NCBI GenBank assembly: GCA_019057795.1
Contig: JAHLWS010000065.1
Location: forward strand, 96,001-160,000
Direction: 5' to 3'
Origin: Promethearchaeota archaeon
GTDB lineage: Archaea; Asgardarchaeota; Lokiarchaeia; Sigyniarchaeales; SOKP01
DNA: 64,000 nt
The notes below the pieces were generated by a model. It saw only the letters and a list, made by a program, of their open reading frames with translations, searched no databases and was not told the DNA's origin. Below, in pieces: positions 17,508 through 33,778 of the stretch. Both the position numbers and the translations under genes were made by a program. Positions within the stretch are counted from its first letter, which is position 1. Each line of letters opens with the position of its first letter.

Positions 17508-18035
17508 TTAAAATAGGTTTAGATTCGCGATTCCTAGATATTTCTCTACAACCTCTAAAACTTCTTCTTTTGACCCAATATATCCAAAGATTTGATGTCT
17601 AGCTTTTCCATGGGACGCATTATCGATAGATTCAAACTGACTTAGTTGTAGCTCGATTTCCCCATATTTTAAAGATAATTTATTTGGAGATTCCGAATTA
17701 TACGATTGAACCACGCCAATTTCGCTCTCTGGATGATCTCGAGAAACATCAAAACAGTCATCTTGAGTTTTAGGGATATCGTTGGAAAGCTTAACTAGAA
17801 AACCATATTCTTCTGAATCGGGAATTTTAAGTACATAACCGATTTTTGCGTGCCGAGTAAAATCAATATCTTCAGGTCGAACTGCTAACTTGTAAACATC
17901 GTCAACATCTAATTTGAAGGCAATGTAATTGTCTCCTACTTTCAATCGATCTTCGGGGATAATGCGAAAGTAGGACTTTGAGTAATTAACAATATTTTTC
18001 CTGCTGTTATCATCATCTGTCAAAAAGGAAAACAT
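17508..18035 (-). pseudogene. C-terminal part of an interrupted host gene (DUF6786-like)
   Basis: SYFRIIP..KIGY..VQSYN..YGEIE; directly abuts the left island repeat. Confidence 0.6.
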
Positions 18036-18037
18036 CT

Positions 18038-18052
18038 TATTATACGAAAGTA
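18038..18052 (+). repeat. Left boundary direct repeat TATTATACGAAAGTA
   Basis: Exact match to 33504-33518. Confidence 0.9.
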
Positions 18053-18096
18053 AACTTAGACAATTTTAATTGTATTTTTCTCAATCATTATTTTAA

Positions 18097-18530
18097 TTAA
18101 AGTATAAAAAGTCTGTTTTTCAGTTCGTAAGGATAGTTACAAAAGACAGCGATGCTGAGGAACTTAAGTATCTTATTGTTATAGATGAAGTTCATGCTAT
18201 TTTAGAAAAAATTATCACTACAAACAGCGATACAGCTGATTTCATCGTTAAAGAACAAATGGCGAAAAGATTCTCAGAATTATTAAAGGAGGATCGAAGT
18301 CGCGGTGTCGGGTTCGCTATTACGGATCAATCTCCCGCTCGTTTGTTCGATGATGTGGTTTCTCAGCCAAATATAAAAGTGATTTTCAGGGAAGTCTATA
18401 TCCAAATAACCTTCTTTTTTCACAAGATGCTGTTGAACGACAAATTTTAACACAACTAGCCAATAGACTAGCATTATTAATTAATGGAGCGAAATGGGAA
18501 AAATATTTAATCCGATCTTTAAATTTTTCT
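18097..18530 (+). pseudogene. C-terminal remnant of a second HerA/VirB4-like ATPase
   Basis: KYLIVIDEVHAIL (Walker B)...LLKEDRSRGVGFAITDQSPARL; no Walker A and no upstream start codon. Confidence 0.75.
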
Positions 18531-18552
18531 TTGTTATAAAACAATAGGAAAC

Positions 18553-19323
18553 TTAAATGAGTTTTTTATCTTTAAGATGATTTACTATTCGGTTTACAAC
18601 AGCTATGCATTCAGAAAGCAGATCTTGAACATCGTCATTTGTATAAGTTAATTCGGGATGTGCAGTAGGATTTCTGTAATTTACGCGAATTGCATCTAAT
18701 TGATCTAAAATTTCCCTTGGTGGAGGGACTGATATACTTTTTAAGTTTATTACAATATTTCCCCAGTTATCTTTACAGCCAGATGAACTATTTAATTTAT
18801 CAAAGAACCACCTCACAATTCCCTCCATACCACGTAGTATATGAAACGCTCCTGCTGTCGATCTTTCAAAGGCAATGCATTTTCCACCTTCGCTGAAATC
18901 GAATCGTGGTAAATCAGGGAGTTCATTAAAAATATTTTGTGCAAATAAATCTTTTATTTCATCTAATAACTTTTCAACTTTTATCCTTTTTTCTGTTATT
19001 ACATAAACTATCCTCCCTTGTAATTCAGCATGAATAACCGTATTTATTTTATCCATCAGAAGAAATATCTCGTTTACATCTTTCTTTTCTAATGTATACT
19101 TGCTATCTGTTTCATCAAGTCTTTCTTTATATTCCTTTAACTCACTGAACCATTCTACATTAGATGTTACCTCTAAATTTAATTCATCTATGTTTTCTAT
19201 GAAACGTTCAAAGCTATCTTTAACAAAGTTTTCTTTATGATAAGGGAAACCAGGTTCTACTAATCTTAGATAATTAATATCTCGTCCAAATGCTACATAA
19301 TCCTTAATGTTTTTCGTCTTCAT
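18553..19323 (-). CDS. HEPN-type (DUF4145-like) protein
   Basis: EGGKCIAFERSTAGAFHILRGME...YRNPTAHP (RxxxxH). Confidence 0.7.
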   Translation of the reverse strand: MKTKNIKDYVAFGRDINYLRLVEPGFPYHKENFVKDSFERFIENIDELNLEVTSNVEWFSELKEYKERLDETDSKYTLEKKDVNEIFLLMDKINTVIHAELQGRIVYVITEKRIKVEKLLDEIKDLFAQNIFNELPDLPRFDFSEGGKCIAFERSTAGAFHILRGMEGIVRWFFDKLNSSSGCKDNWGNIVINLKSISVPPPREILDQLDAIRVNYRNPTAHPELTYTNDDVQDLLSECIAVVNRIVNHLKDKKLI

Positions 19324-19556
19324 ATTTAATCTTTTATCTTTCCCGTTATATATCTTTTACTATTTTCTTAAAAGATCTTATTATAATTATTAAATCAAGT
19401 TATAATGAGATGTGACTTTCGTAAAAATGATTAAAAATAAGAAAGATTGTCAAAATTTTTGTTCTATCTCATTAAACAGATTATTTCTTTGGCAATATAT
19501 CAAATTTCTATTTTTACTTACTTTGCGATTATTAAATTTAAATTAGTGAAAAAATT

Positions 19557-20384
19557 CTAATCTTTTATATTTATACCTTGCTCTTTCAAGCAATCCCTGA
19601 AATATTTGAGAAATTCTTCTAAAACATGTTGGTTATTAATTAATTCACCATATGAAAAGGTTTCATTTGATTTCTCGTTGTGAATTGAGGTTTCGTTAAA
19701 TCTAATCTCGATAGACCATTTAGAATTATGTAATTTTATATTTCTTCCTGAACCGTGATGATCAATAATTAAATCTTCCTTTAACCTCTGTATCATTGCA
19801 AAATCAAGCTTGATAATTAAATTAATATTAATATCATCTGATTGTGGGTTTTTTAAAATATTGTATAATTCTTGGTATTTTCTTTGCTTATGATTAATCT
19901 GATAATCTTGGTGGGTTAAATTTTTATTCATTAACCTAATATACGGCAATGATTCTCCACTCCCCAAAATCTTTGTCTTTCTCATAGTATCTATTACGAA
20001 TTCGACGTATTTTTCTGCCTCTGGTTGCCTGAACGTTTGCTTTAACGATTCAAATCTATGCTGGTAAACACTTCTTTCAATATGGAAATCTTTAACGATC
20101 TCATCATAACTTTTTAAATTCCAAGGGAAATTTTGTTGCATATTTTTATATAGTATTGGAAAGTCGTAAGTTCGACCATCTCTTTTATTCTTAAATATTA
20201 AATCTATACGATTGTTTTCTGCCATCACAACCATACATATCTTAGACAAAACATTATCAGCAAGGTAATGACCTAACTCATAAATTATCGGAATTTCGTT
20301 TTTCGCAAGGTTTTTTGCTATACTTATCATTTTTTTAAGAGTCGTATTATAGGAACGAATATTAGCTTTATCCATGATTAACAA
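19557..20384 (-). CDS. Putative HEPN-like protein, paralog of 27450..28325
   Basis: YELGHYLADNVLSKIC...ERSVYQH (RxxxxH). Confidence 0.6.
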   Translation of the reverse strand: MLIMDKANIRSYNTTLKKMISIAKNLAKNEIPIIYELGHYLADNVLSKICMVVMAENNRIDLIFKNKRDGRTYDFPILYKNMQQNFPWNLKSYDEIVKDFHIERSVYQHRFESLKQTFRQPEAEKYVEFVIDTMRKTKILGSGESLPYIRLMNKNLTHQDYQINHKQRKYQELYNILKNPQSDDININLIIKLDFAMIQRLKEDLIIDHHGSGRNIKLHNSKWSIEIRFNETSIHNEKSNETFSYGELINNQHVLEEFLKYFRDCLKEQGINIKD

Positions 20385-20706
20385 AACTTAATTTTGATAT
20401 TTTAAAATTCTTATTAACTAGAACACATGTTATTTAGATTAATTAATTAAATTATCAAGCCTTTGATTTGTTTTATTCGAGGAGAGAGTAAGGATTTTCT
20501 CTATAATTGTTATTTAAAGAATCAATTCTTCTATTAACCTACACCTTTATTAAAAAGATTTAACGACGATTCATTTTAGTAATTCCATTATAATAGTGCC
20601 AAATAGCAAAATTTGATTGTTTTTTAAATTCAATTTGATAAACCAAGAAAGATTTTTTAATTTCTAAATACTTATCATTTTAAAATCTAAATATTAGCAT
20701 TTTATC

Positions 20707-21456
20707 ATGTTTGATATCACTTTAAAATCTGTTTATAATCTGGGTCCAGAAAATTCGTGGTTTATTATCGCTCCTATATCATTTGCCTTTAATAATGTGT
20801 ATTATTTAGAGCTCGAGATAATTCCACCATTGAGTGATAAAAGAAAACAAATTGAAGGAAAGTATAAAATAGCGTATATTTATGGTGATCAAAAAACTTT
20901 CATAGATGAAAGATTTCTAAATAGTATAAAAAAAAGAGTTGTAAAAAAAAAGGACCCCGAACAACCGCTCGATATTGATTATAAAGTATGCTTATTGTGT
21001 TTAGAAATAAGTGACCCGTTAGATGCCCAATACTTAATTCGAGCAAAAATGTCAGTAATTAATAAAGAACTAATTGATTCTCTTTTGACATCAAACGTAA
21101 AGAAAAAAGATTTAATTGCTCTAACTGAAAGATTTCTTAAACAAGATTATAAAACTGCTATAAAGGAAGCAGGTATATTTGGGGAATATATAGCAAAACA
21201 ATTTCTTAAAAAATTAAAAAAGAAGTATGTAAGTTATAGTTCCGCAGTTAATCATTTATCAAATCTAAAGAAAACTAACAGGATGAAAATCAATTACAAA
21301 TTAATTGGAAATTTCCTTCATCCAATTTATTTTATCAGAAACGAAGCAATGCATCCAAGTTCAGAAATTCCAATGGACGAGACTACTGCATCCTTAGTCT
21401 TAACAAATCTTTCCGGATTAATTACATATCTTTCTATCAATCAGATAAAATTTTAA
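20707..21456 (+). CDS. Unknown N-terminal domain plus C-terminal HEPN-like domain
   Basis: DYKTAIKEAGIFGE...IRNEAMHP. Confidence 0.6.
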   Translation: MFDITLKSVYNLGPENSWFIIAPISFAFNNVYYLELEIIPPLSDKRKQIEGKYKIAYIYGDQKTFIDERFLNSIKKRVVKKKDPEQPLDIDYKVCLLCLEISDPLDAQYLIRAKMSVINKELIDSLLTSNVKKKDLIALTERFLKQDYKTAIKEAGIFGEYIAKQFLKKLKKKYVSYSSAVNHLSNLKKTNRMKINYKLIGNFLHPIYFIRNEAMHPSSEIPMDETTASLVLTNLSGLITYLSINQIKF

Positions 21457-21511
21457 AGAAAAAGAAGCTATGGCTTAACTTTAAGTTCAATTAAAATTAA
21501 TATATGATTAA

Positions 21512-22231
21512 ATGTCGGATAATAACATAGAAAAAATTAGACAAATACTTCATTATAAGGAAAGGGATGATTTATCTGAATTACTTTCTCAATCCAAATC
21601 TAAAGTCCAAGCTTCGTCGTCTTATGGAAGTAAATTAAATTCCATTTTAAGCACATTTGAAATTTACTCATCAATTGAATATACTGAAAAGTTAAGGAAT
21701 TTAAATAAGGAGGAACACGACCTTATTTTTCTTGCAGTTAAAGAAGTTTACCCTATTAGAGATGCTTCTCCAGAAATCATGGATGTAAAATATTACATTA
21801 GTTCCAGTGAGGAAAATAATGATCTCGATTCAGCGGATTCATTATGGGCTAATATTCATCCAGATATTACAAAAGTCTCAAAACAATTATTTAGTGATAA
21901 ACATTATGCACAAGCTGTTTTTTCTGCATTTATAGAAGTGAATTTTCGCGTGAAAAACATAGTTAAGAATAAAATTGGAGAGGAATTAGACGGAAAAGAT
22001 TTAATGTTCAAAGCTTTTAATTTAGGAGATCCAATAATTCAATTAAGTAATTGTTCAACTAAAACAGAAAAAAATATTCAAGAGGGATACGGACATCTAT
22101 TTGCTGGGGCAATCCAAGGTATTCGAAATCCAAAAGCCCATGAAAACATAACAATTGATGAAAATAGGGCAATACACTTTATATATTTAGCAAGTCTTTT
22201 AATGTATAAAATAGATGAATCATATCAGTAA
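21512..22231 (+). CDS. TIGR02391/Ymh-family HEPN protein
   Basis: IHPDI..HYAQAVFSAFIEV..LDGKDLM..GAIQGIRNPKAH. Confidence 0.85.
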   Translation: MSDNNIEKIRQILHYKERDDLSELLSQSKSKVQASSSYGSKLNSILSTFEIYSSIEYTEKLRNLNKEEHDLIFLAVKEVYPIRDASPEIMDVKYYISSSEENNDLDSADSLWANIHPDITKVSKQLFSDKHYAQAVFSAFIEVNFRVKNIVKNKIGEELDGKDLMFKAFNLGDPIIQLSNCSTKTEKNIQEGYGHLFAGAIQGIRNPKAHENITIDENRAIHFIYLASLLMYKIDESYQ

Positions 22232-22233
22232 AA

Positions 22234-23358
22234 TTATCCATACCCGTTTCCCTCTTTATTGCCCTTTTTACTTTTCTGTTTTTTTCGCTTGTATTTTTCG
22301 TAGCGAATCCTGTTTATCTCGACTGTCTCCCTTAATTCTTCGATATTCTTAATTCTATAACTCATTACAAGCATTTTATACCGTACTTCGCGCCCCAGCT
22401 CTAATTCGTGGTCGATTAGCTGAACGTGGATGGTGTGCGGAAATTTCCCCCCCGTTCTTACGAGCCCTTTTTTTATTCTTCTGGTTGGTTTTTTGCAAAC
22501 TTTACATTTGTGGGGGATGTATTTCGTTACCGTGTGAATAGGTTCTAAATGCTTAGAATTTACGAACCCCGTTGTCTCGTAGGCGGGCTTTAGTTTTCCG
22601 TCGCCCTTTCTCCACAACGCACAATGGGTAAGGGTATAAAAAAGCGTATGGTAAGCGTCTTCCCTGCTTCCGAAATTAACGTACACCCAATCTTTAAATT
22701 TTTCCCTAAAATCATTCGCGTGTAGCACGTAACCGTACCCTATGTAGTGAAAGTGAGGGCTTAGAATCCGTTTTAAGTCTTGAGTTTCGCACGAACACCC
22801 GTAGTCTTTTTTTCCGCAAGTTCTACACTGCTTAACCCATAGATCGAGTATTAAAACGCCTCCAAATAGTCCAGATTCTTCTAAAATAGTATTTACTACG
22901 CGTTCCCTTCTAAATTTGAGAAATTTATCGTAATCCGTTAGTATTTCCTTCAGTAACTCTTTTGTCGGGCTTAAGGCGATGTGCTTTACCATACCAATTT
23001 TAACACCTTCTTTTAACGCTTTTTCTCTAAGTTCCTTCAATTTCCCGTTTAACTCTCTTGCTCTCGTTGACGAGGCTTGGATAAAACAAGATTCGCAATC
23101 CATTTTGTTGCAATGGTTGTAATGTAGCGTGAGGCTTTTGTATATGTGGTCTTTACACGCGCTAGCTCCTCGAAAAGTGTTGCAATTATCCCTGTACCTC
23201 CCGTCGTCGTGCGTTTTCTCGAAATTTCCGCTCCCCGCGATTATCCAGTTTGCTAATCTCTCGAATTCTAAAGCTTGGTTCTCTTTTATCTGGTCTATTA
23301 CGTTGTATTTGCTTTCAGTTAGGATTTCTACTTCTAAAGCCATTTTTTGTCGTTGCAA
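22234..23358 (-). CDS. HUH rolling-circle replication initiator/endonuclease (SNJ1 RepA/IS91-like, Zn-binding)
   Basis: N-terminal C..C..CxxxxCxxC cluster; motif 1 KHIALSP, motif 2 SPHFHYIG, motif 3 YHTLFYTLTH; extra CxxC pairs. Confidence 0.8.
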   Translation of the reverse strand: MQRQKMALEVEILTESKYNVIDQIKENQALEFERLANWIIAGSGNFEKTHDDGRYRDNCNTFRGASACKDHIYKSLTLHYNHCNKMDCESCFIQASSTRARELNGKLKELREKALKEGVKIGMVKHIALSPTKELLKEILTDYDKFLKFRRERVVNTILEESGLFGGVLILDLWVKQCRTCGKKDYGCSCETQDLKRILSPHFHYIGYGYVLHANDFREKFKDWVYVNFGSREDAYHTLFYTLTHCALWRKGDGKLKPAYETTGFVNSKHLEPIHTVTKYIPHKCKVCKKPTRRIKKGLVRTGGKFPHTIHVQLIDHELELGREVRYKMLVMSYRIKNIEELRETVEINRIRYEKYKRKKQKSKKGNKEGNGYG

Positions 23359-23707
23359 ATTTTTTTGATTTCGTTAGATTTTTGTACTTTAATTACTTCC
23401 AATCGACCTTTAAAAACTGCCCGACAAAATTTCGTGTCACGATATTCTAAATCCTTTATCTCCTAAGAATTCCCCCTTCAATCGTTTTAAATAATCCTTA
23501 GATTCTTAAAAATAATATTAAAGTAATAATAATTAAATTAAATTCAATTATTTATTTCTCAGAATAGATTTAATATCTCCTTAGTCTTATAATATTTTAA
23601 ATCTGTTTTTTTTTAGATTTACTTAATATCATTTTTAAATTTTATTCAAAAAATATTAAAGAAAGAAAGTGTTAATATAAAAATGCATTTCTGTAAATGA
23701 ACCTAAT

Positions 23708-24589
23708 ATGAAAGACTTTTGGAATAAAGAAACCGAAAAAAGATTTTTTAAACAGGCTTTAAAAAATTTCGCGACAGTAGAAAAGTTGTTCTATAAAACT
23801 AATAAGGGTGAATACTTTGCTTATTGGAAAAAAAAATATGAAGGTGAAAGATACACGCTTCAAAGCAGAAATTCATTAATCGGTAATTTTACCGAAAAAT
23901 ATTCGAAAGATTTATTACAGGAAACTGTCCAAGAGAGAAATTTATATGCCGTAAATAATGTTGTATGTAAAGAAATCGGTTTAACTAGAAGATCACCTGC
24001 TGATGTGGTAATTTCAAAAAGGAATCAGATTAATTTAAGACCAGAGGATATAGTTTTAATAGTAGAAGTTAAAATGTCTCTCGTTTGGAACTGGAGGTAT
24101 GAAATAAAAGGATCTGAAAATATTTTTAAATGTGTTGGAGATTACTTATCTCATGCAGGAACCCCCGGATTATTACGTTCAGATTCAATGTTAAAAGCAA
24201 TAGGAAAAAGCATTAATATAAGAGTTTCTGATTTTCAATCATCTAAAATTCCGATTATTATTTTAGGAAATACGCCAATTACAAATAATTATTATGATAA
24301 AGTTGACCATTTAAAAATTGCAGGTATTATTCAAGGTTTTTGCTCAATTAACCCATCCCCTATAAATGATACTACCCGAAATATAAAATCTACTCCTAAG
24401 CATGGATTTATTAGATTTGATAGATTTGACGAGTTTAAGAAGTATATTAATAAAATTATTTCATCTGATTATAACTTCTTTTCTAGCATGAAAAATCGGA
24501 AAGATTTGGGTATAATCATTGAAAAAGCAAATAAAAAACAAACTTATGAGGAAAAAGCTGAAGAATTTCTTAGATTAATACGAAATTAG
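23708..24589 (+). CDS. Putative type II restriction endonuclease (PD-(D/E)xK)
   Basis: PADVVI...IVEVK; directly upstream of a DNA methyltransferase. Confidence 0.7.
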   Translation: MKDFWNKETEKRFFKQALKNFATVEKLFYKTNKGEYFAYWKKKYEGERYTLQSRNSLIGNFTEKYSKDLLQETVQERNLYAVNNVVCKEIGLTRRSPADVVISKRNQINLRPEDIVLIVEVKMSLVWNWRYEIKGSENIFKCVGDYLSHAGTPGLLRSDSMLKAIGKSINIRVSDFQSSKIPIIILGNTPITNNYYDKVDHLKIAGIIQGFCSINPSPINDTTRNIKSTPKHGFIRFDRFDEFKKYINKIISSDYNFFSSMKNRKDLGIIIEKANKKQTYEEKAEEFLRLIRN

Positions 24590-24655
24590 AAAATTTATAA
24601 AATCTTAACCTCTTATTAGTGAATTTTTTATACATATTTTCTTATTATTATTATA

Positions 24656-25570
24656 ATGCCAGTTAATAATAGTAAGGGTACAAAAACAAGTTCATTTGGA
24701 GTCTCTAAACGAGAAGGTCATGACTCGTCCCATTTTTATAATTCTAAATTATATGAAAACATTACTAGACCTAAAATTGTTAAATATATTGATAATTCTA
24801 AATTAATTTCTCCTAAAGTATTGGATCATGTAATTTTAGGAGATAGTAGAGATATGCATTTAATCCCCGATAACTCTATTCATCTTATGGTTACATCCCC
24901 GCCGTATAATGTTAGAAAAGATTACGATGATGATTTATCATTATTAGAATATTTGCATCTACTTGAAGGGGTTTTTAAAGAAACTTGGCGTGTTTTAGTG
25001 CCTGGGGGAAGAGTTGCTATTAATGTTGCTAATGTAGGACGAAAGCCTTATATTCCTCTTCATGCATATTTTATCGAAATAATGTTTAATATAGGATTTC
25101 ATATGCGAGGAGAAATCATCTGGAATAAAGCTGCTTCTGCAGGCGTATCAACAGCGTGGGGATCATTCGCTTCTGCAAGTAATCCATGTCTAAGAGATGT
25201 GCATGAATATATTTTAATATTTTCAAAATTAACAAACAAACTTGAAAAGGAACAAAGGGAAAACTCAATAGAAAAAAAAGATTTTGTTGAGTGGTCAAAG
25301 TCAATTTGGTCGTTTTCAGCAGCTTCTGCTAGGAAAATTGGTCATCCTGCTCCTTTTCCAGAAGAATTACCTCGCCGATTAATAGAATTTTACACTTATA
25401 AGGGTGATGTTATATTAGATCCTTTTATTGGAAGTGGAACAACAGCTATTGCCTCATTAAAGTTAAATAGACATTATATTGGTTATGAAATATCGCCAGA
25501 ATTTGTTAATTTAGCAAAAAAAAGAATTTCAAATGTAAAAGACCAATTAAAAATTGATAATTTCATTTAA
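24656..25570 (+). CDS. Site-specific DNA methyltransferase, beta class (N4-C/N6-A)
   Basis: TSPPY precedes HPAPFP and DPFIGSGTT. Confidence 0.92.
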   Translation: MPVNNSKGTKTSSFGVSKREGHDSSHFYNSKLYENITRPKIVKYIDNSKLISPKVLDHVILGDSRDMHLIPDNSIHLMVTSPPYNVRKDYDDDLSLLEYLHLLEGVFKETWRVLVPGGRVAINVANVGRKPYIPLHAYFIEIMFNIGFHMRGEIIWNKAASAGVSTAWGSFASASNPCLRDVHEYILIFSKLTNKLEKEQRENSIEKKDFVEWSKSIWSFSAASARKIGHPAPFPEELPRRLIEFYTYKGDVILDPFIGSGTTAIASLKLNRHYIGYEISPEFVNLAKKRISNVKDQLKIDNFI

Positions 25571-25582
25571 TCTTTTAAAGTT

Positions 25583-27307
25583 TTATTCTTTATCCTTTTC
25601 GATCTCTTCCAAAAATCCTTCGGTTAGCAATAAGTTATCTATAAACTTATCAAATTCCTCTACTTTTTTGTCTTCCTCTTCCAATTTAACTGAACATAGC
25701 ACGCAATAATCGGCGTTCGTCGCGATTTCTTTCCCGCAAAACTTACAAAAACTTTTCGCTTCAAGTTTTTTATCTCTTGATAACGTGCCTTCCTTTTGCG
25801 TTTCCTTTTGTTTTTCCGTCCGTTCTAAAATCTCCTCGTTTTTTTCCACGATTTCCTCGTCCGAGAGCCAACTCCTCTTAACGTGTTCCGTTGCCATCGC
25901 GAACGGTTTCTCGATCGAGTTAACTCTAATTAAACATTGCCCCCTTTTTAACATCGATAAGTATTCCTTCTGCCATTCCTTTAAATTTAGTAATTCTTGC
26001 ATTAAGTCTTTTTGCATGTGTACTTGAAACGTAACGAGCACCCCGCAATTTGCTAATATTTCCCTGCTAATGTTAGGGCGGGTCGCGAGCGAAATCAAAC
26101 ATTCCCCAGTCCCCCTCAACAATAACGCGATATCCTCGATGTAAGAAGTGAGTTTTGTTCTACTACTAAGTTCTTGGGGGGCGAAATACTGCGCGTCCTC
26201 TATTATTGTTACGTGCTTAATTCCCTCGTAATTTTTGCTCCCCGTTTCTATGTTCTTGTCCCACAAATATTTTAGCACCATGTTTAAGAAAAACAACGCG
26301 TCTTCTTTTTCTCCCCCTTTGCGGATGATCGAGCTCAAGTCTAATAAAACCCTGTGGTTAAACAGCTCTTTCACGTTAAGACCGCTTTTCTTGTCGAATA
26401 TGTTTTTTAACGTGCTTACAGAATAGCGACGGATTCTATTTCTGATCGCTTGAACGCTTTTTTTCATGGTAAAATCTTCTTGTTTCGCGTAATATTTATC
26501 AAATTCGCTAAAAAACTTGTCCCAGCTCCTATTTTCTTCTTTTGGACAAATTTCGTATAGAATGTCGATAAATACTTTTTCCATTTGAGGCGAATAATCG
26601 ACGTTCTCTAACAAACCCCCGCTTTCGAAGATTTTAAACACCCTTTCTGCGTGAATGTACGGGTCTCCCCCTTCGGGATCGAAAATGTTAATCGAAAAGT
26701 TCTCGCCCGGCTTTAGTATCAGCAAATTGTCGATTTTCTTCTGCAAAAATTGGTATTCCCCCTTAAATTCCGTTAAAAGAAAGGGGATGTCGTATTTTTT
26801 AGTAAAATTCAACAGAAAATGTTGCAAAAAATTGCTTTTTCCCGTGCCCGTCGTTCCGCACACAAACATGTGTTGCGCTAAATCGTCAACGTTGAGGCTA
26901 AATTTATGCTTGACCTTGTGCTTGTCGATAACCCTTCCTATGTTTATGTTACCGATCTTAGACTCGGATTTTGACGGGTATTCCATTATCAGTTCGAATA
27001 TTTTCGGAGATTTAAAAGTGTATAGGAACAAAATGGAAGAAATAACTAAACTTAATTGAGAACCCCCTATAAAAACTATTTCTATAATAGATGACGACGG
27101 CTCTGCCGTAAATATTTCTAAATTAACTATCAAAAAAACGAATAAAATCACAAATATGACTATAATAGCGCAACGCATCGCTATTATCATAATGCTGTGC
27201 TTTATACCTCGTCTTTTACGCTTCTCTTTTGAGTTTGAGTAAAATAAAAACAAAATAAGAGCGATAGGAATAAGCGATAAAATGAAATACGGTAGTAGCG
27301 TGTCCAT
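25583..27307 (-). CDS. Membrane-anchored HerA/FtsK/VirB4-like ATPase with C-terminal zinc ribbon
   Basis: Three N-terminal TM helices, HMFVCGTTGTGKS (Walker A), TIIEDAQ (variant Walker B), CKFC...CVLC. Confidence 0.85.
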   Translation of the reverse strand: MDTLLPYFILSLIPIALILFLFYSNSKEKRKRRGIKHSIMIIAMRCAIIVIFVILFVFLIVNLEIFTAEPSSSIIEIVFIGGSQLSLVISSILFLYTFKSPKIFELIMEYPSKSESKIGNINIGRVIDKHKVKHKFSLNVDDLAQHMFVCGTTGTGKSNFLQHFLLNFTKKYDIPFLLTEFKGEYQFLQKKIDNLLILKPGENFSINIFDPEGGDPYIHAERVFKIFESGGLLENVDYSPQMEKVFIDILYEICPKEENRSWDKFFSEFDKYYAKQEDFTMKKSVQAIRNRIRRYSVSTLKNIFDKKSGLNVKELFNHRVLLDLSSIIRKGGEKEDALFFLNMVLKYLWDKNIETGSKNYEGIKHVTIIEDAQYFAPQELSSRTKLTSYIEDIALLLRGTGECLISLATRPNISREILANCGVLVTFQVHMQKDLMQELLNLKEWQKEYLSMLKRGQCLIRVNSIEKPFAMATEHVKRSWLSDEEIVEKNEEILERTEKQKETQKEGTLSRDKKLEAKSFCKFCGKEIATNADYCVLCSVKLEEEDKKVEEFDKFIDNLLLTEGFLEEIEKDKE

Positions 27308-27449
27308 TAAAACAATTATTTTGATAGAATGTTATAAACTCCTATTTTTTAAATACAATAGTAGAAAGATAGTATTTTTATAGACTAAATTTGATAAAAT
27401 TTTTTACTTGTATTATACCTTCATGATTGACATATAATAAAAAGAGAAT

Positions 27450-28325
27450 TTATTTAATTCTGGAACTAAGGCATTCTAGAATATTTGAAATTGTTTTGAA
27501 GTCTTGTATTGGATTATCATCAAATGCAAACTTCATTATCTTATCAATTCCAAAATTTTGAATATCTATAATAATTTCAAGATTTTGATTACAATTGACA
27601 TTAATTAAAATTCGTGTTACTTCCTTTTTGTTTTTGAAAAAAATAAAATCTGTAATTTTTATAATATTTCTTTCAAGATAGGAAACACCTAATGATTGTA
27701 ATAAAACTTTATGTGTTTTAATTAAATCTAATGCTGATATAATTGCCCCTGTGAATTTATTTCGAGGTCGAAAGGAAGAATTATAAATATGTGAACAAAT
27801 CTCTTGTAAAGCATTTATACATTGAATTTTTGTGTCTTTTTCTTTAACTAATTTTTGAGCTTCAAATTTATCTTTTCTTATAGGGTTTAAATAATTAGAA
27901 GGTGTGATATTCTCGTTTTTATTTATAAATTGAACTTCATTTAATATTTCTTCAGCAATTTCAATATATTGTTGCGCATATTCTTTATTAAAATGGTGGC
28001 TTATGGAAGATTGACCGTGCTGGTAAATATTTCTTTGGTTATGCAAAGCTTCTAATCTTTTAAAATCAGGGATATTAGGGGATTTAGATTTTAATACTTT
28101 ATTATACAGATCATAAAATGAATAAGTTATACTCCTACTACTTTTATTTTTTCTTGTAAAATTTAATCCATTTTCTATAGCGATAATGATACAAATTTTA
28201 GATATTAAATTATCAGTTAAGTAATGTCCAAGCTCATAAAATTGTGGATTATCGGAATTACATAATTCTTTAGCAAAACTAAACATTTTCTTAATTATAT
28301 TTCTCTCTATCTTTTTGTTCGGCAT
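27450..28325 (-). CDS. Putative HEPN-like protein, paralog of 19557..20384
   Basis: YELGHYLTDNLISKIC...QRNIYQH. Confidence 0.6.
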   Translation of the reverse strand: MPNKKIERNIIKKMFSFAKELCNSDNPQFYELGHYLTDNLISKICIIIAIENGLNFTRKNKSSRSITYSFYDLYNKVLKSKSPNIPDFKRLEALHNQRNIYQHGQSSISHHFNKEYAQQYIEIAEEILNEVQFINKNENITPSNYLNPIRKDKFEAQKLVKEKDTKIQCINALQEICSHIYNSSFRPRNKFTGAIISALDLIKTHKVLLQSLGVSYLERNIIKITDFIFFKNKKEVTRILINVNCNQNLEIIIDIQNFGIDKIMKFAFDDNPIQDFKTISNILECLSSRIK

Positions 28326-28409
28326 TTTAATTTTATTCAGACAATATAATTTTATAGGATTTTATTCAAATATTTTTATAATCCGATTATTGTTGAATTA
28401 TTATATTAT

Positions 28410-28745
28410 TTATTTAGTGACTTCAATTCCAAATTCTTCTAAATTAAACATTTTTTTATACCTTAAACCTCCCCCTTTAACAGAAATCGGTTCTACAATA
28501 TTAGATTTTGCCCAATCATTCCAATATTTAACTACTGTTGAATGACCTACAGAAACCTTCTCTGCTATTTTTCTGCTACTATTTTTACCATCACTATCAT
28601 GATATATTGATTGTTTTATATCATTATTTAATACACTAAGTAATACTTCTTTTGCTTTACTCCAAGCTTGAAATTTAGTCCATTTTACAAGTTCTTGTAA
28701 TAATTTTATAATTTGGTCATCTTGTCCTTTATTCATACTTTTCAC
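28410..28745 (-). CDS. HTH DNA-binding protein
   Basis: SSRKIAEKVSVGHSTVVKYW. Confidence 0.7.
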   Translation of the reverse strand: MKSMNKGQDDQIIKLLQELVKWTKFQAWSKAKEVLLSVLNNDIKQSIYHDSDGKNSSRKIAEKVSVGHSTVVKYWNDWAKSNIVEPISVKGGGLRYKKMFNLEEFGIEVTK

Positions 28746-29250
28746 CTTTAATTATTTTTGCAATAGCATCGTTTTTGTTTAATTTGTTTTGTAATACTTC
28801 TTTAATTAAGTTAAATAGAAATTTAGTAGTAAAAAACGTAAACCCATAATAATTTAGAAATTTTTTAGCGTTAGGTGTTAATGGATCATCTCTTTCATCA
28901 GGATTTTTATTCCTATAATGATTTATTACAAAAATTCCTTTTAATTCATTAGCTTTAGATGTTATCACCAGTTCTTGTTGAATCCAACTATCTAATTGGA
29001 TTATATCTTCTTTTTTGCCTTGTTTTGTTAGTCCTTTAACTTCTAAAATATATTTTATTCCTTCATGAATAAAAGAAATATCATGATTATTACTATCGTT
29101 TACAAGAACAACATCTTCTAAATTTAATAATTTCAAGCAATATGTAACTGCTTCTTCAAGTGGTTTACCTGTTCCATATAATAGACTTTCAATAATTTCA
29201 AAATGATTTATATTTTCTTTCAATTTTTTAATTTTTTTTATCGTTTCCAT
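28729..29250 (-). CDS. PD-(D/E)xK (Mrr-like) nuclease domain, possibly N-truncated
   Basis: GKPLEEAV..HDISF..ILEVKG..IIQLDSW..GIFVINH. Confidence 0.65.
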   Translation of the reverse strand: METIKKIKKLKENINHFEIIESLLYGTGKPLEEAVTYCLKLLNLEDVVLVNDSNNHDISFIHEGIKYILEVKGLTKQGKKEDIIQLDSWIQQELVITSKANELKGIFVINHYRNKNPDERDDPLTPNAKKFLNYYGFTFFTTKFLFNLIKEVLQNKLNKNDAIAKIIKGEKYE

Positions 29251-29372
29251 ATCTATTATTATAACTGTTATAGTTAATATAACACATAAGCGCAGTTAAA
29301 TAAACTAAGAGTCCTATAATTTTTCGTATAACAGAAAAAGATATATATACTATAATTGTTTCTATTACTATT

Positions 29373-29525
29373 ATGGAAAGTAAAAAAATTACGACTTTAA
29401 TAAAAAGTCCTACTAAGAAAGGAGATCAGTATTATTTCAGTATACCTATAGAATTTATTCGTTCAAAAAAAATTGACCCTGAGAAAAACTACGAAATTCA
29501 AATTTTCTCTTTATCTCAGGACTAA
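29373..29525 (+). CDS. Small AbrB-like DNA-binding protein (50 aa, not in ORF track)
   Basis: MESKKITTLIKSPTKKGDQYYFSIPIEFIRSKKIDPEKNYEIQI; BRE/TATA-like aaaagatatatata ~30 bp upstream. Confidence 0.6.
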   Translation: MESKKITTLIKSPTKKGDQYYFSIPIEFIRSKKIDPEKNYEIQIFSLSQD

Positions 29526-29640
29526 AGTTTTTAGTAATTTATTAAAGATATGTGTAGTAAAGAGTTAAAAATTTATAAACATAAATTTCAATATTTAGTA
29601 TAAGAATAAAAATCGAAAAGAATTTATTACTTTTAATAAA

Positions 29641-30792
29641 ATGAAACTGAATAAATTAAAATTGTATGGCAATATTGGTAAATTCTTCCCTTATTTAATG
29701 ATTCTTTATTTTACAGTTAGCTACTTATTCTTTTTTGAAAGCATAATCAATTTATTTCTTTTAATTTCATTCTTAGCTGTATTTATATTTTCTATTATTC
29801 AGTATGTAAAATTATATAAAAAAAACACTAAAGAAATTAAAACAGAACTTGAAAATGAAATTAAAAACATGAAAATAAATTCTACTTTATTCACACCTGA
29901 ATTTCTCATATCATATGCGAGAAAAATACCCTTTACATCTAAAAGGAGTATGGATAGGATTAAGATTCTTATCGCTCATTTATTTAAACAAAAAGAACTT
30001 GAAAGAGAAAAGTTGGTTAGTGCTTTCCAAGGTAAATTTTTTGAGAAAATAAAAGAATCTTTACAGATTTTACTCTATTTTATAAATATAGAAGAATATG
30101 AATTAAATAAATATTTATCTATTAAGAGAAAAAAGCACTTCTTATTCTGGTCAATTTCTCAAGTCATAGTATTAAGTTTAATATTAATTTTTGGATTTTT
30201 AATTGCATTTATTGAACTTCCTCAATTTTTTATTTTCTTTCTCTTTCTAATAATTCTCCTTCTTTTTGTGATTTTTAGAGATATTAAATTGGTTGTTAAT
30301 AAGAAGTTCCAAAATGGTCTTAATAGATACCACAAAAATAAGAAAATATTTAGTGAATATCAAATATCACTTAATTTGCTATGCAATAATCATTATTTTC
30401 TTTCTTTAGAACAATATAAGGATGTCAAATCATTATTGAATTTAACAAATTTAAAAATTAATTACTATAAGGAGATAATAAAACCATATTATTTTTATAT
30501 GTTGAAATATGAAATTATTGGTTTTTTTGGAATTCTCTGTGTAATCATTAGTGCTATTTTTCAAGAGATATCCCATCAAATTTCAATAACTTTATTTAAT
30601 TTTAATATTATAACTATAATCCTCTTTTTAGTCTTTATTTGCGGTTTTATCATAATCCCAATTATACTATTTAGAAAACCTCTCAAAATTAATATTTTAA
30701 TTGATGAAAGAGGTAAGAAGCTTAAAGAAAACTTAGAACTTCTTAAAGTATGCCAATATGCATTTATAATAATCAATAAAAATCAAAATTAG
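29641..30792 (+). CDS. Multi-pass membrane protein, unknown function
   Basis: Three pairs of TM helices; extremely AT-rich. Confidence 0.6.
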   Translation: MKLNKLKLYGNIGKFFPYLMILYFTVSYLFFFESIINLFLLISFLAVFIFSIIQYVKLYKKNTKEIKTELENEIKNMKINSTLFTPEFLISYARKIPFTSKRSMDRIKILIAHLFKQKELEREKLVSAFQGKFFEKIKESLQILLYFINIEEYELNKYLSIKRKKHFLFWSISQVIVLSLILIFGFLIAFIELPQFFIFFLFLIILLLFVIFRDIKLVVNKKFQNGLNRYHKNKKIFSEYQISLNLLCNNHYFLSLEQYKDVKSLLNLTNLKINYYKEIIKPYYFYMLKYEIIGFFGILCVIISAIFQEISHQISITLFNFNIITIILFLVFICGFIIIPIILFRKPLKINILIDERGKKLKENLELLKVCQYAFIIINKNQN

Positions 30793-30963
30793 TAGAATAG
30801 TTTTTCTAAATTGCTTAGGTTTCATAAGATTAGTTCTTTTTAAATAAAGTAACAATGAAAAATATTTATAAATTTAATTCGGTTCTAATTACGTTAAATT
30901 ATTCAATCTTAAAAATCATGATTCTATACCATCTGATGTTTATAAAAATTAAAACAGGATACT

Positions 30964-31196
30964 GCTTCGCAACCATCCTTAGATGATCGGGGTTGATGGG
31001 GGGTTTATCCCCCCCTAAATTACGATACTTCCGCGTTCAAAAAAAATATGGCTTAAAAGCTTCGAGACCAAAAACATCCCGTTAAAAAGTAGATAGTAGA
31101 TACATGTAAGTTAAAAGATTCGGAGCGACCCGTTAGCCCTTGATGGTTGCGAAGCGAAGCGAAGCAAGGTCGCGACAGCGGAGCGTAAGCGACGCT
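30964..31196. other. GC-rich structured non-coding region, candidate rolling-circle origin
   Basis: 14-bp inverted repeat 30964-30977/31142-31155, G6-tttat-C7 hairpin 30998-31015, (GCGAA)3, palindrome gtcgcgac. Confidence 0.55.
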
Positions 31197-31478
31197 AAAT
31201 ACTATTTTTTTCGTGCGGAAAAAGGAAAGAAAAAAAAATACGCCCTTTATATTCTGAATTTCTAAAGGAACAACCGTTGATGAAAGCTGTTAAACAAAAA
31301 TGTAATTTGTATCGTTATTTTTAGTACTTTGTTTAACGCGTTTTAAATAAAGATCAATATTATTAAAACCATAATAAATTCTCTTATAAATATTATAGTC
31401 TATACATTATTTGTAAACATTGATGTTTAACACCAATATTATAATAAATATTTACTATAAGAGGAAAAAAAATTTATA

Positions 31479-31799
31479 ATGGATCAAAAGTACTATATAG
31501 ATTTAAAAGATAAGAATGGAAATTCATACATGTTAAGTATTTTAATCGAACGGGATTTAGGAAAAAACGGAATTTTTATTATGGAACACGCTAACGGTAC
31601 TCAAAAATCGTTTAAAAAAATTACAAGGGCGTTGAAATATCTAAAAAAAAAGAAATTTTCTCCCGATGAAATTAAAAGAGTAATAGATTTAAACCAGAAA
31701 ATCATGAGACTTAGAGATTCCGAAAAACGCAGGTTTATCTCACCTCCTTTTGGTTTTGAATATTCTAAAGAAATTAATAAAAAGTATTCAAAGAAATAA
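31479..31799 (+). CDS. Hypothetical basic protein
   Basis: 106-aa ORF with ATG and gagg upstream. Confidence 0.55.
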   Translation: MDQKYYIDLKDKNGNSYMLSILIERDLGKNGIFIMEHANGTQKSFKKITRALKYLKKKKFSPDEIKRVIDLNQKIMRLRDSEKRRFISPPFGFEYSKEINKKYSKK

Positions 31800-31830
31800 A
31801 ACAATAAAAATTGGAAATATATGAATTATA

Positions 31831-32157
31831 ATGTCGCAAAAAAAAGACAAAATTATAGGGATAAGATTAACAAATACGGAAAAAGAAGAAATTGATAACT
31901 ACACCAAAAATAGAGGTTCTAACCTTACAGAATTTATTAGACAAGCGATAGCTTTTTATCTAAACAATTTAGAAGAAAATCCTGAATCAATTAATATAGA
32001 AAATGTAGTTGAATATTCTAAAAAAATAAGGACATCGATAAAAAATGTTAACATTAACTTTAACCAATTAAAATTAGCTCTAAATGAGCTTTCAAATAAC
32101 TTCAATCAATTGGATAAAGAATTGGTAATTTATTTAAGAAAATGGTATAAAAAGTAG
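31831..32157 (+). CDS. Ribbon-helix-helix (CopG/MobC-like) protein with coiled coil
   Basis: IIGIRLTNTEKEEI...NLTEFIRQAI. Confidence 0.75.
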   Translation: MSQKKDKIIGIRLTNTEKEEIDNYTKNRGSNLTEFIRQAIAFYLNNLEENPESINIENVVEYSKKIRTSIKNVNINFNQLKLALNELSNNFNQLDKELVIYLRKWYKK

Positions 32158-32259
32158 TCTAGCTAATAAAGTCGAATTTTAAGAGTAGCGACGGTTGTGA
32201 AATGATGTTTATGAATGAAACAACCGAGCAACCTCTGAAAATGAGCGGGAAGGTTCGCG

Positions 32260-32282
32260 AAGGAAACCGAAGGGGTTTCCTT
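32260..32282. other. 9-bp stem-loop between convergent genes (terminator or ssDNA signal)
   Basis: aaggaaacc-gaagg-ggtttcctt. Confidence 0.5.
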
Positions 32283-32300
32283 GCAAGAGTAAACGGGTAA

Positions 32301-32879
32301 CTATTTTACATCTCTTTTCTTTAAAGGAAATCCGCTCTCAATGTCTCGTAGAAACGAGTTATATCTTGACCGTCCCCAAAGATATCTATCCTTACTTCTT
32401 AAATCTTTGAATTCTTTCTCTAATTTTAACGCCTTAAATGCTTCTATAAATTCTAAATATCTTTCTGCTTTTCTTTCTGATTTTTCATAATCTAAATTTT
32501 CAAATCTTTCTAATTCTTCGTGTTCTACAACTCTAAAATCGTATACCGTGAATCTTTTAGGATATAGCACTGTTAATATGGCAGAAGCAGTAGCTATCCG
32601 AAATTCCCAATCAAATAGAATTTTAATTCTTTCTAAATCGGATTTAGCCCTATGTATTTCGCGAGTTAATATTTTAACGTTCTCGTCAAATGTTTTAGAT
32701 TCTTCTTTTTTTATTATTTTTCGAGCGTTTAAAAATTTTACTCTTTCAGCCTTCCAAATTAAAATACAATAAAATTGAACTCCACTGATATAACCGTTTA
32801 ATTGAAAAAATTCCGTAACATCCTTATATAAATAACTTTCCAAATCGTAAAATTTCTCGTAATCTATATCCTCGCTCAT
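32301..32879 (-). CDS. HhH-GPD-like (DNA glycosylase-related) protein
   Basis: ILIWK..FRIATASAILTVLYPKRFTVYDFRV..LRSKDRYLW. Confidence 0.55.
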   Translation of the reverse strand: MSEDIDYEKFYDLESYLYKDVTEFFQLNGYISGVQFYCILIWKAERVKFLNARKIIKKEESKTFDENVKILTREIHRAKSDLERIKILFDWEFRIATASAILTVLYPKRFTVYDFRVVEHEELERFENLDYEKSERKAERYLEFIEAFKALKLEKEFKDLRSKDRYLWGRSRYNSFLRDIESGFPLKKRDVK

Positions 32880-32980
32880 TTTGGTTTTTACCTCTTTTTG
32901 TATTTTTATCCCAAATCATTTCTCGTTTATAAATATAAGATCTATTAATTTAAAAAAGAGTTTTAAAAAAAATAAACGAA

Positions 32981-33322
32981 TTACTTCTCTCTCTTTAATT
33001 TGTCCTCAGAAAAATCTCTAAAATCCCGAAATTGATAACCGCTTTCGACGGATATTTTACGCTCGTCTTCCAAACTCTTAGCTCCTCCTTCCCTCTTGAG
33101 CAAGCCCTTTACAAAAGCTTCCACGGCAACTTTATACTCGCCAACTCTGCTCTTAGGTACTTGAAAAAACAAAAAAGCCGAACCCTCCCCCAAAGTTAAC
33201 TCTATTGCGAACTTACCCTCAACGAATTCCCGAACAGCCTCTCGATACTCCAATATCTTGCTCGTAGGAACCCTCACGCTCACCCAACCCGATGCTTCCC
33301 CAAACTTACGCTTTCTACCCAA
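32981..33322 (-). CDS. Small putative DNA-binding protein with internal duplication
   Basis: GRKRKFGE..VSVRVPTSKILEYREAV repeated as FFQVPKSRVGEYKVAV. Confidence 0.5.
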   Translation of the reverse strand: MGRKRKFGEASGWVSVRVPTSKILEYREAVREFVEGKFAIELTLGEGSAFLFFQVPKSRVGEYKVAVEAFVKGLLKREGGAKSLEDERKISVESGYQFRDFRDFSEDKLKREK

Positions 33323-33420
33323 GAATACAAACCAAAACTAGTTTAAACTTTCTTAAATTATAAGTTAGAGGCAACGATTTTAAACCGCTAGAATTTTAAA
33401 AGAAAAACTTTCGAAAATTT

Positions 33421-33480
33421 CGCGACTCGAATTTACGCGTTCCGAGACTCGAAATAACCCCCCTACTTTTCCGCGACTCG
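33421..33480 (+). repeat. Three sub-terminal CG(C/A)GACTCG repeats
   Basis: cgcgactcg 33421, cgagactcg 33443, cgcgactcg 33472. Confidence 0.75.
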
Positions 33481-33503
33481 TAAAAACCATATGTATCTTG
33501 ATA

Positions 33504-33518
33504 TATTATACGAAAGTA
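33504..33518 (+). repeat. Right boundary direct repeat TATTATACGAAAGTA
   Basis: Exact match to 18038-18052. Confidence 0.9.
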
Positions 33519-33778
33519 CTAAAAAAACTAAAAAATTCTCTTTCCGGACTAATCCAATATCTATCTCCGCCAATATCCCTTCTTCTTGTTTTAAATACTT
33601 CTTTTATATCTGGATTAATCCACAGCAAACTATAACAATCGTTCTTTGGATACAGCCCTAAAAGGCGCCCTCCATACTCAGAAACTACCGCAGAACTTTC
33701 GTTGTTAAAATTTAATTCGATAGGATTACCAATATCTTCCTTGAAAGATAAAAGAGTATTTTTGGTAAAGTAGTTCAT
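33506..33778 (-). pseudogene. N-terminal part of the interrupted host gene (DUF6786-like)
   Basis: YGGRLLGL..LLWIN..GGDRYWISPEREFF, then stops inside the boundary repeat. Confidence 0.65.

Follow-up and report, generated by a model that had tools for sequence, protein, structure and literature searches.

A probable one-tyrosine HUH endonuclease from an Asgard branch of the SNJ1 RepA family and the integrated elements that carry it

The RepA protein of the haloarchaeal sphaerolipovirus SNJ1 is annotated as its rolling-circle initiator, and plasmid and provirus homologues of it are also on record (Wang et al. 2018, J Gen Virol 99:416, as cited in PMC6563490 and PMC6213432); in the SNJ1 genome record, gp11-12 is the entry to which the name RepA and this role are given. 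The SNJ1 RepA family as such is already known from the literature. In the published surveys of Asgard viruses and elements that were consulted, HUH replication endonucleases are mentioned for two wyrdviruses only. The present work concerns a gene, here called rep, which lies on a 64,000-nucleotide stretch of contig JAHLWS010000065.1 of a Promethearchaeota archaeon (this whole stretch is referred to below as the window). We consider it probable that its product, Rep, is a one-tyrosine HUH endonuclease for single-stranded DNA which belongs to a divergent Asgard branch of the SNJ1 RepA family, and which would nick a short motif, start rolling-circle replication and, probably, excise and insert the element in which it resides. 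No description of an Asgard branch with a Cys4 ribbon and a conserved tail, of its cis motif or of its integrase-less elements was found in the literature searched.

The gene is present in a single copy in the 4.95-Mb genome assembly. A TTG at 23358 is a possible start, but close homologues begin at an ATG five codons later (MALE.., 23343), and for this reason the real product is probably a protein of 369 residues starting at that ATG. The features of the gene are listed below; the counts give the conservation of each residue in the wide family, as evaluated in a set of 143 sequences in which the denominators vary by column.

22234 to 23358, reverse strand: HUH endonuclease gene (rep), a 374-aa open frame counted from TTG
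23086 to 23184, reverse strand: N-terminal Cys/His cluster, C59..C68..H71..C83-x4-C88-x2-C91 (C83 and C88 130/130, C91 124/131)
22966 to 22983, reverse strand: motif 1, H126-I-A-L-S-P131 (H126 132/139, S130 121/139, P131 114/139)
22789 to 22827, reverse strand: inserted zinc ribbon (CRTC..CSC), C178-x2-C181...C188-x-C190, invariant in the close clade
22747 to 22755, reverse strand: HUH motif, H202-F-H204, within SPHFH (200-204) (128/128 each)
22624 to 22653, reverse strand: tyrosine motif, Y236..Y241-T-L-T-H245 (YHTLFYTLTH) (Y241 128/128, H245 108/128, Y236 in the clade only)
22495 to 22506, reverse strand: C-terminal CxxC (CKVC, C285/C288) (97/99 and 95/97)
22237 to 22302, reverse strand: basic tail and conserved terminal G-N-G-Y-G, from the close-homologue alignment

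Scans of the protein and its homologues against Pfam, PHROGs and NCBIfam, together with a sequence search of the PDB, returned only noise, and no significant Pfam domain was present in ten distant relatives scanned. A word-indexed search recovered 25 homologues, none of which bears a function name, and all of those with an organism name come from Asgard metagenome-assembled genomes (Loki-, Odin-, Hermod- and Promethearchaeota). The four ribbon cysteines, H202, H204, Y241, C285 and C288 are invariant across 23 close homologues. An exhaustive profile search enlarged the family to 715 cluster representatives at E values up to 1e-3, with 291 at 1e-10, and the distant matches span the core of the protein (profile positions of about 49-290). 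Neither a tblastn search of annotated phages and plasmids nor a pattern scan of IMG/VR viral contigs gave a relative.

The relationship to SNJ1 RepA emerges at the level of profiles. SNJ1 RepA falls below significance by BLASTP (E 0.021) and with a hidden Markov model (HMM) built from the close clade only (E 0.016), and an HMM built from the wide alignment scores it at E 2.9e-22. Alignment of the 90-sequence core profile with the single sequence of SNJ1 RepA by hhalign gives a probability of 98.4% (E 1e-14) over 172 columns. The motifs occur in the two proteins in the same order (C-x4-C-P-x-C, H-x3-S-P-P, H..W/R, P-H-x-H, and a single Tyr in Y-x-L-S/T-H-C-A), with the Y241 motif aligned to the YALSH of SNJ1 RepA (Y-A-L-S-H-C-A). 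The two systems also differ: where the Asgard clade has its Cys4 ribbon, SNJ1 RepA has a longer insert without the ribbon cysteines; the Asgard clade has a C-terminal part of its own which ends in GNGYG; and SNJ1 is an extrachromosomal provirus, whereas the Asgard genes are chromosomally integrated without a recognised integrase.

In a FastTree phylogeny of 141 core sequences, the close clade comprises 35 tips on a branch of length 0.48 with support of 0.994, and SNJ1 RepA lies inside the wide-family tree and outside this clade. Every member of the clade that has an organism name comes from an Asgard metagenome-assembled genome, and the clade is apparently a divergent, Asgard-specific branch of the SNJ1 RepA family. 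Its sister group includes a protein from a 4.4-kb circular contig. This contig (L033; L labels denote the loci compared and G labels the genomes compared, G000 being the window's own genome) is 4542 bp long with a 141-bp terminal overlap, which makes it a circular replicon of about 4.4 kb, with 24% GC; it codes for a distant family member of 417 aa and six or seven open reading frames (ORFs) of 46-86 aa, and several assemblies have contigs of about 4.54-4.65 kb with the same protein cluster.

An earlier note on this DNA, made from its letters without database searches, had singled out the motifs HIALSP, SPHFH and YHTLFYTLTH, the N-terminal cysteine cluster, the CxxC..CxC insertion, the third CxxC and the basic tail, all of which are indeed present, and conservation in relatives shows that they did not arise by chance. 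Its two-tyrosine reading of the catalytic region as YxxxxY finds no support in the pattern of conservation. Whereas Y241 is invariant in the wide family, Y236 is near-invariant in the close Asgard clade only and falls below a 60% consensus in the wide family, and the position aligned to it in SNJ1 RepA is not a tyrosine. Because only Y241 is invariant, the conserved catalytic motif is, as judged from the alignment, Y241-x-L-(S/T)-H245, that of a one-tyrosine enzyme in which Y241 is the candidate nucleophile. Position 172, which is Asp in this Rep and Gln or His in its close relatives, is His in 121 of 140 wide-family sequences.

Comparison with IS91 was made with a profile of 26 full-length transposases that have both Pfam domains, collected by starting from a fragment on another contig of the assembly. 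The two profiles align with a probability of 95.7% (E 8.7e-9), but only over the region bounded by the zinc finger and the HUH motif. The whole Cys/His pattern is shared, including the invariant C-terminal CxxC: the spacing of the N-terminal cluster is that of the IS91 zinc finger (C-x4-C-P-x-C), the cluster aligns with the zinc fingers of both SNJ1 RepA and IS91, and motif 1 aligns with the IS91 HHIxFTxP. Rep and IS91 differ in that the Cys4 ribbon columns of Rep align to gaps in the IS91 profile, and in that IS91 has invariant Y261, R264 and Y265 (Y..RY) about 100 residues after the HUH motif, while Rep has one Tyr 37 residues after it. The Pfam families Zn_Tnp_IS91 (PF14319) and Y2_Tnp (PF04986) match neither Rep at E values up to 10 nor 23 homologues at E values up to 1, while the true IS91 fragment in the same assembly scores 1.3e-30 against Y2_Tnp.

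The structure of Rep was modelled with AlphaFold both at full length (predicted local distance difference test score, pLDDT, 82.6) and as a core of residues 56-300 with the 90-sequence alignment (pLDDT 94.8, predicted template modelling score 0.87). In the core model the first strand of the HUH fold bears H126 of motif 1, a long second strand bears residue 172, the third the HxH, and a helix after the fourth Y241. In the numbering of the domain model, the predicted central strand with H202-F-H204 comprises residues 140-154 and the predicted helix with Y241, which comes after the HUH strand, residues 181-189, while the Cys4 ribbon forms a hairpin excursion between the strand bearing residue 172 and the HUH strand, just before the HUH motif. 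The HxH on the central strand that characterizes the HUH superfamily is therefore present in the model, as is the alpha+beta HUH fold, the latter with modest scores. In a structural alignment against 48,161 solved chains the five best matches are all HUH nucleases: SIRV1 ORF119 (2x3g, Z 5.9 over 105 residues), Vientovirus Rep (9pqq, 5.3), RepB of pMV158 (3dkx, 5.3, and 8amu, 5.2) and the Vientovirus endonuclease domain (9pqf, 4.9). The HUH domains of nanovirus, parvovirus, Helitron, geminivirus and circovirus proteins and the MobM relaxase rank lower, mixed with other ferredoxin-like folds. Among the predicted viral structures of BFVD, six matches have E values of 1e-3 or less (best 8e-6, probability 0.98-1.00) over 230-260 columns, and directly below these six, the matches that have names comprise microvirus replication initiators together with a G2P-type protein. 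The Microviridae initiators (gpA/VP4), SIRV1 ORF119, RepB of pMV158 and CRESS-virus Rep resemble the model in that a central strand bears the HUH motif and a helix after it the Tyr, and the Microviridae initiators and other Rep-class HUH nucleases have no detectable sequence similarity to Rep (Z 5-6, TM 0.43-0.48). These structural scores are modest, but the enrichment of HUH proteins among the matches is consistent and agrees with the positions of the motifs.

A recently described family of archaeal initiators, Rep-Arvir, has a DUF7845 domain (Rep_trans-like) with a TBP-like fold and is without an HUH motif (PMC13107129). Membership of Rep in that family was rejected, since no DUF7845 match appeared in the Pfam scans and Rep combines an HUH motif with an HUH-like fold.

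Taken together, homology, fold and conservation make it very likely that Rep is an HUH nuclease of the SNJ1 RepA/IS91 lineage. The interpretation given in the earlier note is in this respect largely supported, since the resemblance it saw to archaeal-virus RepA proteins is borne out by the profile comparisons, the new Asgard clade that it thought possible is recovered apart from SNJ1 RepA, and the outcome that it had named as refuting, an absence of structural matches to HUH endonucleases, did not occur, the best matches among solved structures being HUH nucleases, with microvirus initiators among the viral models. The relation to IS91 transposases that it also proposed survives as profile homology, but not in the sense of the Pfam definition of those enzymes.

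Beyond the catalytic core, Rep has twelve conserved Cys/His residues, which by their number would be enough for three zinc sites; in the wider family, each ribbon column is occupied in 97-103 sequences, and in 65-85 of these the residue is Cys. The Lys/Arg-rich tail (residues 353-366) is followed by the G-N-G-Y-G terminus found in almost all members of the clade, in which Y373 is conserved in at least 90% and G374 is invariant; the earlier note does not mention this terminus. An aromatic residue followed by Gly also ends the protein (..GYG, ..DFG, ..DYG) in many family members, distant ones included (P0047, P0049, P0055, P0057, P0082, P0090, P0096 and P0119), as in the close clade, and this C-terminus may be a docking peptide for some partner.

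In the mechanism that we propose, H202 and H204, together with residue 172, would hold a divalent metal, and Y241 would cut one strand at or near the cis motif described below and stay bound to the 5' phosphate. The freed 3' hydroxyl would prime rolling-circle synthesis, and cutting and rejoining at a second copy of the motif would free a single-stranded circle. The same chemistry on a target would probably insert the element, so that Rep would serve as both replication protein and transposase.

Comparison with the uninterrupted host gene in a sister genome (G005) defines an element of 15.5 kb in the window, with the following features.

17976 to 33529, strand not assigned: inserted element (15.5 kb)
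18038 to 18052, reverse strand: motif copy downstream of rep, an exact 15-nt direct repeat of the copy at 33504
33418 to 33488, strand not assigned: three iteron-like 20-nt repeats with spacing of 22 and 29 nt, adjacent to the upstream motif copy on its inner side, a candidate binding part of an origin
33504 to 33518, reverse strand: motif copy upstream of rep, reading TACTTTCGTATAATA on the rep strand

The cis motif, ACT(T/A)TCGTATAAT, is found on the rep strand in four loci that hold distant relatives (L004, L005, L006 and L008), at a distance of 14-34 nt beyond the end of the gene's stop codon, and as the variant ACTATCGTATAT on the rep strand in two more (L028 and L029). In L010, L022, L003, L002 and the window, the motif core follows one or more further genes downstream of rep. 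The background, with up to one mismatch allowed, is about nine unexplained matches in about 500 kb of strand, or about one per 56 kb, which gives a chance of about 7e-4 of finding the motif in a given 40-nt window; its presence in four of ten loci by chance is then of the order of 1e-10. The motif also occurs as a subterminal direct repeat near both ends of four elements (those of the window, G015, G020 and L006), the same-strand pairs lying at 2226 and 13079 in the G015 element (L002) and at 2756 and 31239 in that of G020. A 29-nt end, composed of the upstream motif copy and the 14 bases inside it, is identical in the window, G015 and G020 elements. From its position and its conservation we infer that Rep acts on this motif. 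The iteron-like repeats are candidates for the binding part of an origin, and in the G015 element, whose Rep is 70% identical, other repeats stand in the same place (TCGTGGCAC twice at a spacing of 22 nt). Two non-coding blocks of the window (29232-29526 and 31113-31210) are 83-97% identical in the window, G015 and G020 elements despite differing neighbour genes, and the first of them holds an inverted copy of the motif with one mismatch (TTTTCGTATAA).

The elements range in size from 4.3 to 28.5 kb, and three insertions can be compared with empty sites. The flanks of the window element show 90.8% and 92% identity to those in G005, the interrupted DUF6786-like host gene lacks 351 nt, and the host sequence at one junction resembles the motif. 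The G015 element (L002, 2201-13259) lies in the 5' end of Sua5 with the loss of 14 nt, and its empty site is found in five of the compared sister-genome loci (G014, G011, G027, G030 and G002). The third, of 4295 bp (L006, 7009-11303), has rep as its only gene of more than 149 aa, together with six small ORFs, and motif copies which begin 6 nt in from one end and 75 nt in from the other; its insertion is clean, with only a CA ambiguity, and the empty site is found in G329, in G005 and in the window's own genome. The insertions show neither a long target duplication nor an att core in common. The possibility that the 15-nt repeats are themselves an att core or the exact ends was rejected, since the empty-site junctions lie 6-25 and 62-166 nt further out and share no core. 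Two details of the integration sites may be added: in two assemblies the 4295-bp element occupies a site downstream of a gene for leucyl-tRNA synthetase, its empty site in G000 being on contig C73 (L054, about 2309), and the G015 element carries at 13094-13259 of L002 its own divergent copy of the first ~30 Sua5 codons, a substitute N-terminus which keeps the gene open. This segment either came along as captured flanking DNA of a previous host or serves as a built-in means of target repair. In the genomes sampled, rep is present in four of 36 others of the same genus, and the 24 taken from elsewhere in the order and class gave no copy.

Initiation of rolling-circle replication by Rep is suggested by its characterised relative and by the small circular replicon that codes for a family member. 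Excision and insertion are probable further functions, since the elements have two motif copies on the same strand, the 4.3-kb element is without another candidate enzyme, and Pfam scans of the ORFs of the window element gave no integrase domain. A stronger claim, which we advance only tentatively, is that Rep is the sole recombinase of a class of Asgard integrative rolling-circle elements of 4-28 kb, which with one Tyr and a subterminal motif of 12-15 nt would replicate, excise and insert them. If true, these elements would be hybrids of an SNJ1-type replicon and an IS91-type transposon, carrying cargo and spreading defence genes without an integrase.

Several observations weigh against the functions proposed for Rep. 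With a single catalytic Tyr per monomer, cutting and rejoining would need oligomers or a second nucleophile. The motif copies stop short of the element borders, by 6-25 nt at one end and by 62-166 nt at the other. Of the three insertions, two removed target DNA (14 and 351 nt) and so were not clean events. When the DNA around the motif was folded, no hairpin surpassed those of shuffled controls, which leaves a nick site in a hairpin loop unsupported. Small or unrecognised recombinases may be present among the unassigned ORFs. On the structural side, Foldseek searches of the PDB with both models gave no significant match, and Z scores of about 5-6 are within the range in which the alignment tool warns of the common ferredoxin-like arrangement.

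Three alternatives retain real weight. The strongest is that Rep is purely the replication initiator of an integrated plasmid or virus, insertion and excision being the work of an unrecognised recombinase or of host recombination. SNJ1 RepA is a replication protein, a distant member of the family is found on a small circular replicon, the iteron-like repeats beside one motif copy resemble the arrangement in plasmid origins, and two of the three insertions are untidy; we nevertheless regard this alternative as unlikely, since it must account for a 15.5-kb element in which no integrase domain was found, for a 4.3-kb element which has no other gene of more than 149 aa and yet inserts cleanly, and for the repetition of the motif near both ends of four elements.

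The opposite restriction, in which Rep is an IS91-like rolling-circle transposase without autonomous replication that moves its element from an ori-like end beside the gene to a ter-like end, draws on a different part of the evidence. In IS91 and ISCR elements, oriIS is located immediately 3' of the transposase gene, and the likely recognition motif of the Asgard elements is similarly found just 3' of rep in the distant relatives. The absence of a long target duplication is a further likeness, the zinc finger to HUH region is homologous in profile, and the foreign 5' end of Sua5 in one element is what capture by read-through would give. IS91 is, however, a short insertion sequence present in many copies, whereas rep is in single copy in its genome and the elements are 4.3-28.5 kb long, carry cargo and have subterminal direct repeats. 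Rep also leaves the two Pfam models of IS91 transposases unmatched, has one invariant Tyr against their invariant Y..RY pair, and is, on the profile comparisons, closer to the replicative SNJ1 RepA than to IS91. A purely transpositional role is accordingly improbable.

Least probable of all, and in our judgement very unlikely, is that Rep is a conjugative or mobilisation relaxase which nicks an oriT and is pumped with its DNA by a membrane-anchored HerA/FtsK ATPase, aided by a ribbon-helix-helix (RHH) protein (31831-32157), for even though rep and the ATPase gene occur together in five independent elements, the ATPase has a weak match to the TrwB coupling protein (E 0.002), the RHH gene is NikA-like (E 2e-7) and the basic C-terminal tail of Rep has a conserved end, the catalytic Tyr of classical relaxases precedes the HUH motif, N-terminal to the His triad, and the invariant Tyr of Rep follows it by 37 residues, as in replication proteins, the ATPase is absent from the G015 and 4.3-kb elements, and the stretch with the RHH gene has no DNA similarity in the G020 element and no blastp homologue in the other loci compared.

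With Rep read as an initiator that probably also mobilises its element, a recurrent family of chromosomal islands acquires defined borders, a candidate recognition motif and an enzyme of replication and mobility by which it can be recognised. The islands carry restriction-modification, McrBC and HEPN-type cargo. This reading also places a well-populated intermediate group between viral SNJ1 RepA and the bacterial IS91 transposases, a group which bears on the interconversion of rolling-circle replicons and rolling-circle transposons. Since the family of about 715 cluster representatives is without a Pfam model, a profile for it would annotate many hypothetical proteins.

The IS91 fragment mentioned above appears to have a separate history. 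Among 301 genomes of the phylum, this one included, Y2_Tnp occurs only on one contig of this assembly (C6 of G000), where L020 holds at 1060-1812 a broken IS91-family transposase with one in-frame stop (Y2_Tnp E 1.3e-30), whose closest relatives are from Dehalococcoidia and Aerophobetes. Because these relatives are bacterial and the family is in 0 of the 300 other phylum genomes sampled, the contig is probably bacterial contamination, unrelated to the finding of rep.

Two neighbours of rep in the window recur beside it elsewhere.

25583 to 27307, reverse strand: HerA/FtsK-type ATPase (Pfam DUF87 and FtsK_SpoIIIE)
19557 to 20384, reverse strand: 275-aa protein of unassigned family, 55-67% identical to proteins encoded next to rep in L002 and L010

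The ATPase is the recurrent partner of rep in the larger elements, being 63-67% identical in three other loci, with 93% nucleotide identity in G020, and the family of the 275-aa protein is encoded directly downstream of rep in related elements. A complex prediction for the C-terminal part of Rep and the soluble part of the ATPase scored 0.00, was made without controls and counts neither way. The window element also contains HEPN-like and Hypoth_Ymh genes and small helix-turn-helix and RHH genes. A run of unannotated genes (18553-19323, 19557-20384, 20707-21456, 21512-22231 and 27450-28325) includes one Hypoth_Ymh match (E 2e-29) and one weak HEPN match (E 0.012), and the genes at 19557-20384 and 27450-28325 are paralogues which adjoin rep elsewhere as well.

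Comparison with eleven other loci gives a backbone of rep, the ATPase and the 275-aa protein, between which unrelated cargo is swapped: a restriction-modification pair in the window and McrBC with a cytosine methyltransferase in L010, while in G020 a different stretch of 11.6 kb takes this place. In the window, the slot between rep and the ATPase (23708-25570) is filled by the gene of a 293-aa protein that belongs to no known family and, after it, that of an N6/N4 DNA methyltransferase (Pfam E 1.4e-48). The methyltransferase is accompanied by a probable endonuclease. The same slot in L010 holds HhH-GPD, McrBC and C5 methyltransferase genes, and it looks like a hot spot for defence cargo.

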